64,000 bases of DNA from a virus (taxonomy: Duplodnaviria; Heunggongvirae; Uroviricota; Caudoviricetes): IMG/VR virus record IMGVR_UViG_2571042445_000002; one strand, written 5' to 3'. Positions 14,759 to 30,122 of the stretch are shown here, piece by piece (position 1 is the stretch's first letter; each line of letters opens with the position of its first letter). The translations under genes and the position numbers were made by a program. The notes under the pieces are model-generated. The model was not told where the DNA came from and did no database searches. It worked only from the letters and a program-made list of their open reading frames with translations.

Positions 14759-16456
14759 GTGAACAAGAACATTGAGCCAGCTCGTAAGCGCGAGCGCGAG
14801 ATTATGAATCGGGCGGCAAGCGTCATGGCTATGACCGTCGATCCAACCACTGATGCTGCCGGTAACATGATTACCGACAACGAAGTGATGATGGCTAACC
14901 TGGAAAAAGCTATCCAGAAAGAGCCAATGTTTGAAGGCGTTGGACCAGAAGCAGCTCGCCAGATCATTGGTAGCTGGGCCATGTCTATTCATGAATACAA
15001 ACGCCAGCATGGGCATTATCCGGCAAGCGATGTATTAGCCAACGCCCATGTAGCACTTGAGCGCCTGATGATGGAGTCCGCTAAAGAGACGCATGAAGGC
15101 GCTGGCAAAGCCATGTTTGAATCAGTAGCCAAGGACATGCGCACCTCCGATGGTGTAATGAAGGTTGCACAATATGCCGCACTGATCCTGCCTGCTTCTC
15201 TCGGCGCAGCCACCAGCGACGCATGTACGTTTATCCCTTGTGATCGTGATGAAACCAATATTTACGAGCTGACCAACGTTGCTGGTACAAAATTCGGTAC
15301 ATTCGAGCAGGGCGATGAACTGAACATGCAGTCTGCTGGCGTGTATTCGCAGATGAAACGCCTGTACATCCTGACCGAAAAAGGCGATGGCAGCAAAACC
15401 ACCTTCCAGTTTGATATCCAGAACTTCGAAGGCCAGGCCTGCCCGCTGCGCCAGGGCTACAACAAACTGCTGATTAACCGCAAACCGTCCAAAGTAGATG
15501 ATGGTGACGGCAACCTGTATTTCAACGACAAAGACGTCAACGGCAACTCTTTCTCTGCTACAGCAAAAGTTAAATACGATACCGGCGTTATCGATATCAC
15601 CTTTAATGAAGCACCAGCAGAAGGCACAGAAATCGCTGTTCAGGTTGAAATCAACATTGAACGCAATCCGAGCCTGATACCAGTCATTAACCAGTCCATG
15701 CGCAATTACGCCCTGCGCCCGTCGCAGTACGTGATCGCATCCGAACATACGGTTATGACAGCATCTGACCTGAGCCGTGAACACGGACTCGAACTGGCAG
15801 CATTGCAATTCTCCGCAATGCGCAACTGGATTTCCCACGAAATCGATATGATGCGCCTGCGCACTCTGGTATTCCACACAGTTTACGGTCGTGAATTTGA
15901 TGTGGCACTGCCAGAAGCGCAGAACTACGAATCGTGGGTTGGTTTAATTCGCCATGTAGTGAACGCGCTGTCACAGGACATGGCTGACCGCACCCTGACT
16001 ACCGGTATCCGTGGTGGCTTTGCTGGTGGCGATGCTGCTAACTTCCTGCGTTCCTTACCGCCGCAGCACTTCCAGTTGGCACCGGGCTATGTACAGTCGC
16101 CGTACATTCAATACATCGGCACCCTGTTTGGTTCCATTCGTATCTACGAAGTGCCGAAGCCTATCTGCAAACAATTCCAGGAACATGGCTACGACTTTGG
16201 CCTGGACGACATCTACTTCTATGGTCGTGGCGAAGGCATTGGTAAAGCTGGCCTGGTCGCTGGTGATGCTGTGCCTGCTATTCCGTATGTCCACGAAACA
16301 AATCCAGCCCTGGTAAACCGCACCACTCTTTGGGGTACAGCAATCAACGATGTGCATCCGCGCAACGGTGAGAACTATTTCACTCGCCTTCGCCTGACAC
16401 GTTCGAAAGAAGGTGCGATTGACATGTTGAGCGGGCAAATCAACGAAAAAAAGTAG
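14759..16456 (+). CDS. major capsid protein candidate (large, ~62 kDa)
   Basis: 565-aa ORF adjacent to the sheath gene; GTG start at 14759 with AGGG upstream; size matches the P1 major head protein as recalled; assignment by size and position. Confidence 0.45.
   Translation: MNKNIEPARKREREIMNRAASVMAMTVDPTTDAAGNMITDNEVMMANLEKAIQKEPMFEGVGPEAARQIIGSWAMSIHEYKRQHGHYPASDVLANAHVALERLMMESAKETHEGAGKAMFESVAKDMRTSDGVMKVAQYAALILPASLGAATSDACTFIPCDRDETNIYELTNVAGTKFGTFEQGDELNMQSAGVYSQMKRLYILTEKGDGSKTTFQFDIQNFEGQACPLRQGYNKLLINRKPSKVDDGDGNLYFNDKDVNGNSFSATAKVKYDTGVIDITFNEAPAEGTEIAVQVEINIERNPSLIPVINQSMRNYALRPSQYVIASEHTVMTASDLSREHGLELAALQFSAMRNWISHEIDMMRLRTLVFHTVYGREFDVALPEAQNYESWVGLIRHVVNALSQDMADRTLTTGIRGGFAGGDAANFLRSLPPQHFQLAPGYVQSPYIQYIGTLFGSIRIYEVPKPICKQFQEHGYDFGLDDIYFYGRGEGIGKAGLVAGDAVPAIPYVHETNPALVNRTTLWGTAINDVHPRNGENYFTRLRLTRSKEGAIDMLSGQINEKK
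16447..16453 (+). other. candidate -1 frameshift slippery heptamer A AAA AAG at the last two sense codons of the capsid gene
   Basis: A-run 16446-16452 plus G 16453 in X XXY YYZ register relative to capsid frame; -1 frame is open for 33 codons to TAA at 16558-16560. Confidence 0.35.
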
Positions 16457-16597
16457 CAGTGGCGAACGTGTCAGTTTCACCAACGGCAATTGAAGTAAAC
16501 GAAGGTGAAACTATCGCCGCAAGCACTTCAAAGACACGAAAAACACCCAAAAAGAAGTAAGACAAGCCCCTGAATAGGGGGCTATATGGAGGAAAAA

Positions 16598-16876
16598 ATG
16601 GCTGATATTCAGGTAACTATTACCCCACCAAATGCGACAGATAAAACTTTCACTGTCGAATCCGATCATCCGGAAATTGTGAGAGTTGATGGAACCACAT
16701 GCACCGCAGTATCTGCTGGTACTGCGGTACTAACCATCAAAACTACAGATGGAAATAAAACCGCAACGTGCACTGTAACGGTTAATGAAGCCGCAGTAAG
16801 TGTCGACTCTGTCAGCGTTGATCCGTCAACCAAAGAAGTGACGGTAGGTGACAGCTTCACGGTCGGCGAAGCCTGA
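16598..16876 (+). CDS. bacterial Ig-like (Big_2-type) domain protein
   Basis: ITPPNATDKTFTVESDHPEIVRVDGTTCTAVSAGTAVLTIKTTDGNKTATCTVTV is a typical Big_2 pattern; SD GGAGG 5 nt upstream of ATG 16598. Confidence 0.5.
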   Translation: MADIQVTITPPNATDKTFTVESDHPEIVRVDGTTCTAVSAGTAVLTIKTTDGNKTATCTVTVNEAAVSVDSVSVDPSTKEVTVGDSFTVGEA

Positions 16877-16880
16877 TAAA

Positions 16881-16906
16881 AGTCTCCCCATGCAAATGGG
16901 GAGACT
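16881..16906 (+). other. 10-bp perfect hairpin (AGTCTCCCCA-TGCAAA-TGGGGAGACT) between Ig-like gene and sheath gene
   Basis: Perfect stem; no clear U-tract, so terminator function uncertain. Confidence 0.4.
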
Positions 16907-16941
16907 TCTCTCATCCGCTCGATAAAGAGGAAAAGAGCAGC

Positions 16942-18597
16942 ATGAATAAAATTGGTTTTTCTGTTGGTCAGGCGGCGGGCGTTGCGGTAGCGGACGTAAA
17001 TGCCGATGCTACCCTGTCCAACACATCTGGCGGTGCTTCCGTCTTTGCCGGGTTGGTTATTTCCCGCAGAGGGGCACCAGGCAAGGTTTTGCAGGTTACA
17101 GCAGCCAACTATCAGAGCGTGTTAGGTTCACCTCTTCACCCGCGCACCGGGGCCGCATTTGAACCATATCGCCACGTTGAACGCGCAGTAAAAGGCGGCA
17201 CCGGTTATGTGGTTCGCGTATGCGCAAAAGACATGAAAGTACCGGGCATTGCCGTTTCTGTTCAGGCCAGGTCGAAAAGCACCAAGTCAGCAAAAACTCT
17301 GCAAATTGCTCCGACCGAAGCAACGGTAAATATCGGCGATACACTGACCGTTCGTGCCGTTTCTGGAGCCACTTCTCCGGTAACTTTCGCTGCAAGCGAA
17401 ACACCTGAAATTTCCGGCAGTGAACTGGCTATTTTCTACATAAAGGACGGTGATGCTTCGACAAACCGCACGTTATCACTGACCCGTGAGGACGAAGAAA
17501 ATGACCTGTTCACTCTGGAACTGAAAGAGACACAGACCGATGGTTCTGTAGAAACTTTGGAAAGCTACCAGGTTTCTTTCGATCCGGATGCAACGAACGA
17601 TATGGGCCAGCCAGCATGGATTCCTGCGTTGTTAGAAAGTCAGTCCTCCAGGCTTGGAGCTGTACTGGCTGATGGTGCCGAAGACTCCGCTCACTTGCTG
17701 ACTTTCGAAGATGTAGCGTTTGAAGGCGGTACAGATGGCGATCTGTCCTCAATTGACGCTGATGATTATCTGAAAGCGTTAGAGGTTCTCGAAGCGTCAG
17801 AAGTTAATTATACCGCACTGCTTTCTATGGGCTGCTACGACGCATCCGTGCTGGCAAAAATTAATTCGCTGGCAGAAGACGTTCGCGTGGATATGTTCTA
17901 CGACCTGAAATGTGCTCAGACTGGTGATAACGCTATCGCGGAAGCTAAATCACATGGTTTCGGCAAATCCCACCAGGCTGCACGTTATCACTTCCCGTAC
18001 TCATGCCGTGACACTTTCAGCGGTATGAATGTGGTTTACGGAATCAGTTGTGATGCGTTCGTGGCAAAAGCGAAAGGCGTTGCGCTTGTGTCTGATGTAG
18101 GCGGCTGGCATTACGCCCCGGCTGGTCTGTCTCGCGCAATCATTGATCGCCAGAACATCACCAGACTCTCCGGAATTGGCACAATCGATCGTGAAGCGTA
18201 TGTGACCGCTCGTATTAACCCTGTAAGCGTTGCAGCGGATGGTTCTGTCTACATCGACGACTCCCTGACGACATACAGCAAAAATAACTATCTGCGATTC
18301 CAGCACGTTTCATCACTGATGAATGCAATTGCCCGCAATTTCTATGAAGTTGCTCAGGCAATCAAGCATGAACCTGATGGTGTAACGCAGGAAAGTCTGA
18401 CTAACGCACTGACAGATATTCTGGACCGTTTTTATGCGGCTGGTGCGCTGGTTACACCACGCGATGAATCTCAAGGTTCTGACCCTTATGTGGTCAAGGT
18501 AACTCAAAAAGACATCGACTTGTGGGAAGTGGAATGGTCCGTGTGCCCAACAGGCACTGCCCGTCGAATCCTCGGCAAACCAATCCTGATGCGTTGA
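16942..18597 (+). CDS. tail sheath protein (contractile tail) with inserted Ig-like domain
   Basis: 551 aa; internal Big_2-like segment (TLQIAPTEATVNIGDTLTVRAVSGATSPVTFAAS); C-terminal region typical of sheath proteins by general pattern. Confidence 0.5.
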   Translation: MNKIGFSVGQAAGVAVADVNADATLSNTSGGASVFAGLVISRRGAPGKVLQVTAANYQSVLGSPLHPRTGAAFEPYRHVERAVKGGTGYVVRVCAKDMKVPGIAVSVQARSKSTKSAKTLQIAPTEATVNIGDTLTVRAVSGATSPVTFAASETPEISGSELAIFYIKDGDASTNRTLSLTREDEENDLFTLELKETQTDGSVETLESYQVSFDPDATNDMGQPAWIPALLESQSSRLGAVLADGAEDSAHLLTFEDVAFEGGTDGDLSSIDADDYLKALEVLEASEVNYTALLSMGCYDASVLAKINSLAEDVRVDMFYDLKCAQTGDNAIAEAKSHGFGKSHQAARYHFPYSCRDTFSGMNVVYGISCDAFVAKAKGVALVSDVGGWHYAPAGLSRAIIDRQNITRLSGIGTIDREAYVTARINPVSVAADGSVYIDDSLTTYSKNNYLRFQHVSSLMNAIARNFYEVAQAIKHEPDGVTQESLTNALTDILDRFYAAGALVTPRDESQGSDPYVVKVTQKDIDLWEVEWSVCPTGTARRILGKPILMR

Positions 18598-28320: not shown

Positions 28321-28695
28321 ATGCTTTATGAGATTGATGCCCGCCTTCAGACAAACGAGAGCGGGGTGGTGATCGCTGAAGGCGACACAAACGCCTGGAT
28401 AGCCCGACTCGATGAATGGCTACGGACACCAAATGGCAGCGTTTACGGATTGCCGTCATGGGGGAATCCGATGGAGGAGTTCAAACACGAACCCTTCGGT
28501 TCTGATACGTCACACATTGTTGAAGTGGCGATTGAAGCGCGAATGATGACGAAGCTACAGCAGGACTTACCAGGGCTTGGACTCCAGGCGATCCGCTGCG
28601 CGACTGTCTCTGAAGACCAGTTACTAATTAGCTTCCAGGCAAAAGGAGGCACCGTGAATGTTGTTATGCAGAAAGATAGCGGAGATACAGCGTGA
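28321..28695 (+). CDS. baseplate protein, gpW/gp25-like candidate
   Basis: 124 aa, immediately upstream of and overlapping the J-like gene. Confidence 0.4.
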   Translation: MLYEIDARLQTNESGVVIAEGDTNAWIARLDEWLRTPNGSVYGLPSWGNPMEEFKHEPFGSDTSHIVEVAIEARMMTKLQQDLPGLGLQAIRCATVSEDQLLISFQAKGGTVNVVMQKDSGDTA

Positions 28696-30122
28696 GTATT
28701 ACCGAATTACTGGACAAGTTTAATGCCAAGCTGAACGAAAACCCCTGGTGGGCGCGATTTGTAAACAGCCAGTTTATTCAAATGCAGTCCGTTTTGGGCG
28801 CGCAGATTGTTTATATTGCGCGTACATTTGCAAGCCGTGCACTTACAGAAGGATTCATTTCCACCGCGACGCGTAGAGCAAGTATTCTCGCGGCAGCGGA
28901 AGACCGTGGCTATGTCGGTCGTTTGGTCGATGCGTCATACGGCACTGTTTCCATCACCAACAAAACCGACAGGGATATTACTCTACCCGGAGGGGCTGAA
29001 TTACTGACAAGTGACCAGACACCAATTGCAACCAGCAGTAGTGTTGTTATCCCTGCTGGTGAAACAGTACCCGGCATAGAAGTAAAACAGCATGAAGCAG
29101 TCAGCGTAACGTTCGACGTGGTGCAAGAAACACCATTCTTGACGCTGTTACTTTCCCGTGAGTTAACAGCAGAAGTCGCCAGCCTGGAAGTTGTCGTGAT
29201 AACTAATGGTGTCGAGGAAAAATGGACACATAACCCCCTGTTCCGCATGTCCAGGGATAACAGTAAACATTATGTGTTGGTTTATAAGCCGACAGAACAG
29301 ATCGGCGTGCGCTTCGGTGATGGATCAATGGGGATGATGCCAGCGGCAGGGAGTCAGGTACGCATTGATATTATGGCAAGCCTCGGTGATTACACGCTGG
29401 CTGAAGGCCAGAAACTTGAACCAGCAGGGAACATCTCCGGGTATGTCGAATCACTGGAAGTAAAAACCGATTCGATCATTTCTGGCGGTGGTGGCATGGA
29501 AACTACCGAGGAAACCCGAAACAGGGCGCAGTATTATGTGGCCTACGATGAGCAGGTTGTTTGGGGCGGTGATTACCGCCAGTTCATTCAGAACGTGGTC
29601 AGTGGCACGTCATGGCTTAACGTGTGGGGGGAGGCGCTACAGGAGAAAATCACGGGCTTTGATGTGCGTAATATCAACAAAATTTTCTTTTGTGGGCACA
29701 AGCCCGGCGTAACACAGGAAGCTCTGAAAACAGAGATATTATCAGCCCTTGAGAGTATCCCTAATGAGCTGAATAAGAAGTTCGAATACGTCGCCACCAA
29801 TGAACAGCCGTTCAACATCAAATTTACCGGTATCGTAAAAAAGAGTGTGCTGGTGGATGACGCGCTAACTGCAATTAAAGCGGCACTGGAGGAGAACTTC
29901 GGTAAAGACTCCATGTCATTTAGCCAGCTATTGCAGAGTGATGACGATTCACAGCAATGTTATGCACAGGTCAAAGTAAAAGATATCTGGCGAGTAATCG
30001 AATCGCTGGATATGTTCCTGTCTTATGACGTGGCTACGCAGAACATGAAAGAAGCTGTGTACTTTAATGATTTTGTTTATCTGGACGTGGAATCATCAAC
30101 GTTCAGCATAACCTATCCGTAA
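28692..30122 (+). CDS. baseplate wedge protein (gpJ/gp6-like)
   Basis: 476 aa; position between W-like and I-like genes; N-terminal region resembles Baseplate_J family by general pattern. Confidence 0.45.
   Translation: MSITELLDKFNAKLNENPWWARFVNSQFIQMQSVLGAQIVYIARTFASRALTEGFISTATRRASILAAAEDRGYVGRLVDASYGTVSITNKTDRDITLPGGAELLTSDQTPIATSSSVVIPAGETVPGIEVKQHEAVSVTFDVVQETPFLTLLLSRELTAEVASLEVVVITNGVEEKWTHNPLFRMSRDNSKHYVLVYKPTEQIGVRFGDGSMGMMPAAGSQVRIDIMASLGDYTLAEGQKLEPAGNISGYVESLEVKTDSIISGGGGMETTEETRNRAQYYVAYDEQVVWGGDYRQFIQNVVSGTSWLNVWGEALQEKITGFDVRNINKIFFCGHKPGVTQEALKTEILSALESIPNELNKKFEYVATNEQPFNIKFTGIVKKSVLVDDALTAIKAALEENFGKDSMSFSQLLQSDDDSQQCYAQVKVKDIWRVIESLDMFLSYDVATQNMKEAVYFNDFVYLDVESSTFSITYP

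Follow-up and report, generated by a model that had tools for sequence, protein, structure and literature searches.

The 3' end of the major capsid protein gene was analyzed in a 64,000-nucleotide (nt) stretch of Caudoviricetes DNA, IMG/VR record IMGVR_UViG_2571042445_000002 (the window), where a slippery heptamer borders the capsid stop codon and a small gene for an immunoglobulin-like (Ig-like) protein lies between the capsid and tail sheath genes. The source of the window is a D6-like plasmid prophage (phage-plasmid) of Escherichia coli. Over 14.7-17.0 kb, the window shares 99.8% identity with an E. coli plasmid contig and 78% with phage D6; this part matches 121 PLSDB plasmids as well as 101 of 5,426 complete E. 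coli genomes, being plasmid-borne every time. The capsid protein is labelled 'major capsid protein, similar to P1 gene 23' in the D6 record, matches the profile phrog_1014 (E 1.6e-215) and aligns with the solved P1 Gp23 chain 9ukm_A (E 2.7e-166). The features of the locus are collected in Table 1, in which the gene of the Ig-like protein is listed as open reading frame (ORF) 92.

The capsid gene ends in AAC GAA AAA AAG TAG, which confirms the A AAA AAG that an initial annotation, made from the letters of the window, had placed directly before the stop, and puts it in the X_XXY_YYZ phase. Counted from the slip site, the -1 frame is open for 35 codons and translates as VAVANVSVSPTAIEVNEGETIAASTSKTRKTPKKK (16453-16557) before a TAA at 16558-16560. 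The initial annotation was thus right about the open frame but not about its length, as the 33 codons it gave are those of the ORF that starts at a GTG (16459..16560), whereas the peptide it printed already has 35 residues. The predicted transframe product has 600 amino acids (aa), is 3.6 kDa larger than the 565-aa form and would contain the junction peptide KKVAVANVSVSPTAIE in the window type and KKVMVANVSVSPTSLD in the D6 type. Nothing is annotated at the -1 ORF in RefSeq plasmids processed by the Prokaryotic Genome Annotation Pipeline (PGAP).

Table 1 Features at the 3' end of the capsid gene and downstream of it. Coordinates are those of the window, except in the last row, where they are preceded by the locus.
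Feature	Position	Strand	Description
Major capsid protein gene	14759..16456	+	565-aa 0-frame product; P1 gp23 homologue; from ORF list
Slippery heptamer A_AAA_AAG	16447-16453	+	X_XXY_YYZ phase; last base of GAA and final two sense codons
0-frame stop TAG	16454-16456	+	directly abuts heptamer
-1 frame extension, 35 codons and TAA	16453..16560	+	residues 1-24 resemble first Big_2 strands, followed by Lys-rich tail
Candidate stimulatory stem-loop	16459..16520	+	5-nt spacer; outer stem 16459-16465/16514-16520, inner stem 16473-16481/16504-16512
GC-rich hairpin AGCCCCTGAATAGGGGGCT	16565..16583	+	end of capsid cistron including extension; from fold and scan
Shine-Dalgarno GGAGG	16588-16592	+	ahead of ATG 16598
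92-aa Ig-like protein gene (ORF92)	16598..16876	+	ATG 16598, stop 16874-16876; Big_2 without first strands
ORF92 C-terminal tail NEAAVSVDSVSVDPSTKEVTVGDSFTVGEA	16784..16873	+	second copy of strand-A module; from hhalign
Second hairpin AAGTCTCCCCA-TGCAAA-TGGGGAGACTT	16880..16907	+	closes Ig-gene cassette; position kept in D6
Tail sheath gene	16942..18597	+	downstream of second hairpin
Sheath insertion TKSAKTLQIAPTEATVNIGDTLTVRAVSGATSPVTFAASE	17281..17400	+	sheath aa 114-153; third copy of strand-A module
G_GGA_AAG cassettes	L194:1063-1300; L080:4194-4420; L145:2491-2715		identified by heptamer, hairpin and -1 ORF

As a string, AAAAAAG is common in the window, with 30 matches against 18.8 +/- 4.8 expected. 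In-phase A_AAA_AAG occurs 3 times in the 17,610 codon positions of window ORFs of at least 150 aa, and the capsid gene is the only one in which it forms the last two codons. Another occurrence (29837-29843) lies in a 476-aa ORF (28692..30122, + strand), 92 codons ahead of the stop; there the -1 frame shuts after 5 codons and a slip would merely truncate the protein. This heptamer looks unselected and serves as a negative example. The evidence that the capsid heptamer exceeds chance is comparative, coming from the sequences of related capsid genes. About 195 loci encoding capsid relatives were gathered from phages, plasmids, IMG/VR and metagenomes, and each capsid 3' end was classified. Profile-based scans were needed, as single-protein scans of genome and viral collections gave close relatives only. 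Of the fetched loci, 79 share at least 75% identity with the window in the C-terminal part of the capsid; 74 of these show the in-phase heptamer among their last four codons, and the remaining five, which lack it, carry the same peptide in frame on the capsid. Conservation in related phages had been named beforehand in the initial annotation as part of the test that could refute the idea; all 74 fetched relatives that have the peptide out of frame keep the heptamer in phase, from 100% down to 69% capsid identity, and it is invariant over nine or more lineages. The surrounding sequence varies. The stop after the heptamer can be TAG, TGA or TAA, two sense codons intervene before TAA in some relatives (TCC CAG TAA, TCG GAG TAA, TCC GAG TAA), and the codon ahead of the heptamer is GAA, GCA or GGA with a constant final A. 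Further upstream, the capsid tail ranges from INE to hypervariable acidic linkers (GDDTDGDTGNDTG, SASTTSAAAAATTEEEE), all of which end in KK. A sequencing error in the A-run was considered and rejected, as the identical frame arrangement is found in complete plasmids, phage D6 and metagenomes of many sources.

In every lineage of the A_AAA_AAG set the -1 frame is open, with zero premature stops in 74 loci, and its variable sites are distributed 10/4/17 over the three codon positions. Only the strand motif V.V.GVSV.P....V..GD.I is conserved across lineages; the strand-module peptide of the extension reads VAVANVSVSPTAIEVNEGETIAAS. The Lys-rich tail that follows is variable, missing in L130-type sequences and, unlike the strand motif, appears to be under little constraint, because a one-base difference in the A-rich part of L046 and one identical IMG/VR locus alters the last residues and lengthens the frame to 41 codons (...KAQKKQSRSKAKTRP). 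In P0012 and P0014 (loci L031 and L032; capsids 72% and 69% identical), the homologous peptide is the in-frame C-terminus of the capsid protein, ending in ...GVTLSPASITVSAGDEITAGNTKKDS and ...GVSLAPQKISVSVGDEITTSNTKKDS, respectively; the hairpin, the ribosome-binding site and the Ig gene again lie downstream of it. In a neighbor-joining capsid tree (without bootstrap) these in-frame forms sit among the frameshift lineages, with L195 outside and the others inside, so that the two states seem to have interconverted. A GC hairpin closes the capsid cistron in all relative classes and is a true terminator with T-tract in several branches. It is located after the capsid coding end or after the end of the extension, never after a 0-frame stop alone.

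Other results support frameshifting at this site with reservations or weigh against it. The pooled ratio of nonsynonymous to synonymous substitutions (dN/dS) is 0.41 in the -1 frame and 1.63 and 1.81 in the other two sense frames, a coding-type pattern that is supportive but not decisive, as 0.41 is a moderate value obtained from a small sample (11 distinct 105-nt sequences) and as an open antisense frame, which shares third positions, has a dN/dS of 0.53. The candidate stem-loop downstream of the heptamer has a minimum free energy of -24.1 kcal/mol in the window and is significant versus shuffles (z -2.8; about -2.7 for the stem predicted in the window and D6). It does not, however, show any informative covariation: the outer stem has zero variation across the D6-like clade and hence carries no information, part of the inner stem is retained, with an A-U pair replaced once by G-C, and neither stem is preserved in L033, L034 and L130. 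As no stimulator is conserved, the efficiency may not exceed the few per cent that are usual for a heptamer without one. Lastly, an ATG overlaps the capsid stop in D6-type sequences (TGATG, TAATG), a GTG lies 2 nt beyond the stop in the window, and some coupled re-initiation may take place at both D6-type and window capsid stops.

Two candidates were dropped in the course of this comparison. Antisense coding, which dN/dS alone leaves open, was rejected based on the Big_2 homology of the sense peptide and its in-frame fusion in relatives. A conserved stimulatory RNA structure in the A_AAA_AAG clade was abandoned since the outer helix never varies and the structure is gone in L033, L034 and L130. 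No consistent Shine-Dalgarno-like stimulator was found in the 24 nt ahead of the heptamer, and an Rfam scan of 16200-17000 returned no family, only two sub-threshold chance matches.

The overlapping ATG and the nearby GTG also form the basis for reading the -1 ORF as a separate small gene, expressed by termination-reinitiation at the capsid stop as a free peptide of 33-34 residues, and the D6 record annotates it in this way as orf50 (34 aa, ATG overlapping the capsid stop). However, the -1 ORF is without any ATG, GTG or TTG in L130, L197 and L198 and has its first start at codon 17 in L034, and a Shine-Dalgarno sequence was looked for ahead of the window's GTG and not found. A separate gene would further leave unexplained both the invariant in-phase heptamer and the constant A at the preceding wobble position, while P0012 and P0014 carry the same peptide covalently attached to the capsid. 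Due to these in-frame fusions and the start-less -1 ORFs, the frameshift proposed in the initial annotation is favored, and we consider a separate gene improbable.

Slippage could in principle also occur during transcription, with RNA polymerase dropping one A in some mRNAs at the A-run, which is seven A long in the window and D6. For transcriptional slippage to be efficient in bacteria, a run of at least some nine A or T is required. Because L033, L034 and L196 have only six A, yet still keep the exact in-phase heptamer, and because a sister clade uses the non-homopolymeric site G_GGA_AAG, this explanation is very improbable. Taking the comparative evidence together, we think it likely that the end of the capsid gene gives rise to a functional -1 frameshift product.

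The sister clade (L194, L080 and L145; Rosenbergiella type) shares 57-59% capsid identity, and its capsid genes end in G_GGA_AAG followed by TAA, TGA or TAG. The codon ahead of the heptamer is ACG or GCG, with a constant final G. A hairpin of 10-11 bp is located 4-6 nt downstream (-17 to -21 kcal/mol, z -3.5 to -4.9), whose stem sequence in L194 is unlike that of L080 and L145 while the structure is the same. The -1 frame is open for 71-77 codons, encodes Ala/Asp/Lys/Gln repeats, lacks a start codon in L194 and L145 and stops just ahead of a terminator hairpin and the sheath gene. By its predicted elements, the 3' end of this clade is a textbook -1 cassette, whose hairpin would make for a higher shift efficiency, and the presence of this independent cassette suggests that C-terminal recoding arose more than once in the capsid family. 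Other states exist as well. Serratia-type capsids (P0046, P0047, P0056, P0058 and P0069; 47-51% identity), which fall on their own branch of the neighbor-joining tree, carry a complete in-frame Big_2 domain, and the separate Ig gene is absent. In P1 itself and in the majority of the other branches, the capsid gene ends at a plain stop and nothing intervenes ahead of the sheath gene; P1 reportedly lacks decoration proteins (PMC9024508).

Profile comparisons extend two further observations of the initial annotation, namely that the beginning of the extension resembles the first strand of a Big_2 domain and that a stand-alone Big_2 gene starts at 16598. The 35-residue extension alone gives zero Pfam matches, and ORF92 matches Big_2 (PF02368) with 28.6 bits (cut-off 22.8), covering positions 22-79 of the 79 profile positions only. 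An artificial fusion of extension and ORF92 covers positions 1-79 with 34.9 bits. Using as reference a 101-column alignment (A4) of the complete Big_2 domains of Serratia-type capsids, hhalign places the extension peptides on columns 16-39 (E 1.3e-5) and residues 4-65 of the ORF92 family on columns 38-100 (98.8% probability, E 1e-16). ORF92 also matches phrog_215, 'structural protein with Ig domain'. In these alignments, extension and ORF92 are collinear halves of one Big_2 domain, cut in strand B with a two-column overlap. As judged from these alignments, the extension is the start of an Ig domain (strands A, A' and half of B) and not a whole domain, spanning only columns 16-39 of 101. In its position at the C-terminus of a major structural protein, and in having in-frame equivalents in relatives (P0012, P0014, P0046), it agrees with known Ig-like extensions.

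The strand-A module recurs twice more at the locus. The C-terminal tail of ORF92 aligns with the capsid extension (hhalign, 96.7%, E 3.9e-10) and with columns 13-39 of complete Big_2 domains (91.8%, E 7.3e-7). In the solved chain 7quz_AAA, residues 22-46 match the ORF92 tail and the adjoining residues 47-114 match the ORF92 core, and in an exhaustive phmmer search of ORF92 the top 150 matches are all giant tandem Big_2 arrays, with no other small strand-A-less Big_2 protein among them. Based on the order of the 7quz_AAA matches, and as also suggested by the exhaustive search, ORF92 is best described as a one-repeat window of a tandem Big_2 array with shifted register. The third copy is an insertion of 25-50 residues (TKSAKTLQIAPTEATVNIGDTLTVRAVSGATSPVTF... 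in the window) in the tail sheath protein. Precisely the lineages with the capsid module and the Ig gene carry it in their sheaths, and the sheaths of all other relative classes compared lack it. The insertion aligns in register with the capsid extension (94.7%, E 5.6e-8) and with the ORF92 tail (95.7%, E 8.4e-9), and its match to complete Big_2 domains is weak (E 0.004) but in the same register (columns 15-41).

The Ig gene is flanked by two hairpins (16565-16583 and 16880-16907), neither of which has a T-tract on the + strand, while relatives without an Ig gene have one hairpin after the capsid gene, often bearing a T-tract. For this reason the Ig gene looks like an inserted cassette, with a capsid terminator that has been weakened on one side and the sheath gene on the other. 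At L195:3330-3868 (69% identity), two strand-A-less Big_2 genes follow the capsid extension, one encoding a 68-aa protein without the donor-like C-terminal tail and the other a 91-aa protein with it. Two more loci of the collection contain unusual features. L008 (CALWLV010000256.1) is binned as 'uncultured Roseburia sp.' and encodes a D6-like capsid 88% identical to that of the window; it is probably a binning error that placed an enterobacterial phage-plasmid in a Firmicutes metagenome-assembled genome. L196:1-546 carries an IS605 OrfB/TnpB (Cas12f-like) gene about 1 kb upstream of the capsid gene.

The fragmentary nature of the extension leads to a further explanation, according to which it is a non-functional relic of an ancestral capsid-Ig fusion that was broken by an inserted terminator, ribosome-binding site and start codon, with frameshifting as neutral noise. 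That the extension is a domain fragment only, that ORF92 aligns with tandem Big_2 arrays in a shifted register, as the cutting of an array would produce, that the Lys-rich tail is weakly constrained, as in the L046 variant, and that a conserved stimulator was not found would all fit such a relic. Yet nine or more lineages, which together span about 30% divergence of the capsid protein, have kept frame, motif and heptamer; premature stops occur in 0 of 74 loci, and substitutions follow a coding pattern. The in-frame relatives P0012 and P0014 (class B) retain the peptide on every subunit. In E. coli, A_AAA_AAG ranks with the sequences most prone to shifting, and the genes expressed at the highest levels lack it (PMC5009743). 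Were its product useless, selection should act against such a heptamer at the end of the virion gene with the highest expression. We therefore regard a relic as unlikely.

With a functional frameshift as the preferred reading, the following mechanism is proposed. When AAA occupies the P site and AAG the A site, both Lys-tRNAs would slip back one base on A_AAA_AAG, with the single E. coli tRNA-Lys re-pairing in the -1 frame. A minority of ribosomes would in this way bypass the TAG and read 35 more codons, yielding a 600-aa isoform beside the main 565-aa product. Judging from the conservation outlined above, some ribosomes very probably do shift at the capsid heptamer and add the 35-residue tail. 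The P1-type capsid has T=13 geometry with 775 subunits (PMC12810830), so that an efficiency of a few per cent, which is our estimate, would result in tens of extended subunits per head.

-1 frameshifting near the end of the major capsid gene is known from T3/T7 gene 10 (10A/10B), Lactobacillus phage A2 and Listeria phages A118/A500 (PMC5009743). As in these systems, a minority capsid isoform with a C-terminal extension is predicted here. Ig-like extensions that frameshifting adds to phage coat proteins have been documented, and they swap with in-frame fusions (PMC5009743, summarising Fraser et al. 2006); specifically, the extension of T3 and A2 is Ig-like, and relatives swap in-frame and frameshifted versions (PMC5009743). 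The arrangement described here differs from T3/T7, A2 and A118/A500 in that only about 24 first Ig residues and a basic tail would be added, with the remaining domain encoded by a separate gene, in that the capsid is of the P1 gp23 type and belongs to a phage-plasmid myovirus, and in that the slip site consists of the last two sense codons. Serratia-type capsids belong to the same family and use the same C-terminal attachment point, but fuse a whole Big_2 domain in frame to every subunit and have no separate Ig gene. The heptamer of the sister clade, G_GGA_AAG, is that of the phage lambda G/GT tail-assembly chaperone frameshift. Unlike in lambda, it is located at the capsid terminus and not in a tail chaperone gene, and is followed by a downstream hairpin and an Ala/Asp/Lys-rich repeat tail. 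In E. coli dnaX, which encodes gamma and tau, frameshifting is stimulated by an upstream Shine-Dalgarno-like element and a strong downstream hairpin. Neither type of stimulator is conserved at the A_AAA_AAG site of the capsid gene, and the dnaX shift shortens its product whereas the capsid shift would lengthen it. The dnaX heptamer itself is identical, A_AAA_AAG, and is read by the single E. coli tRNA-Lys (PMC5009743).

How the extension might be used is suggested by the split domain. The 24-residue module should not be able to fold alone and would complete the strand-deficient ORF92 by beta-strand complementation, tethering ORF92 to the head. Strand complementation is proposed because the module should be unable to fold on its own and because the strand motif is its sole conserved part, and a docking strand in particular because the extension corresponds to the opening strands of Big_2 and the next gene encodes exactly the remainder. 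Frameshift efficiency would then set the number of docking sites per capsid: docking strands would be present on all subunits in the in-frame class (P0012/P0014) and on a set fraction only where frameshifting is used. We put this docking step forward as a tentative idea. Likewise, the sheath insertion would dock ORF92 on the tail, and the tail of ORF92 would permit self-association. It is conceivable, though doubtful, that the split Ig-like domain serves as a non-covalent docking system for the whole virion of D6-like phage-plasmids. Such a system would have three strand donors, namely the frameshifted fraction of the capsid, the internal insertion of the tail sheath and the tail of ORF92, the latter allowing head-to-tail chains that the tail-less 68-aa acceptor of L195 could cap. 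Translational recoding would set the density of Ig decoration on the head. Two findings qualify the docking idea. The co-occurrence of module and Ig gene is confined to a single clade, and an AlphaFold2 model of ORF92, built with 10 close homologues, has a mean pLDDT score (predicted local distance difference test) of 62 with low confidence in the C-terminal hairpin and linker; due to this low confidence the model cannot be interpreted for strand pairing in cis or in trans.

Chaperone-usher pilins, in which donor-strand complementation operates, lack their C-terminal G strand and receive an N-terminal extension as donor. The proposed docking would resemble this process in that, at the level of sequence, an Ig-like fold is short of a strand that another polypeptide would donate, and in that ORF92 has its own donor-like tail, which would allow chains. 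It differs in that the absent part lies at the N-terminus (A, A' and half of B) and in that a C-terminal tail or an internal loop would act as donor. In the literature covered, which did not include the D6 genome paper, a domain split between a recoded capsid tail and a separate gene, with the module recurring on the sheath and the Ig protein, was not found described.

As a recoding event, the predicted frameshift adds to the known capsid-terminal frameshifts and is unannotated in D6 and the RefSeq plasmids. The collinear Big_2 halves, the module on the small Ig protein and the tail sheath and the predicted second-clade cassette go beyond the initial annotation. E. coli, Salmonella and Shigella commonly carry D6-like phage-plasmids, in which every annotation lets the capsid gene stop in the 0 frame and leaves the next ~140 nt unannotated or assigns them to a separate hypothetical gene. 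If frameshifting does occur, this widespread element would contain a new recoding site, and the same capsid family would hold an independent G_GGA_AAG/hairpin site. In-frame fusion, frameshift and domain-split states within one family would then represent a natural series for the gain and regulation of Ig decoration. If strand docking also proved true, it would constitute a new way of fixing decoration proteins to phage heads and tails and could serve as a minimal peptide tag and binder pair for phage display.

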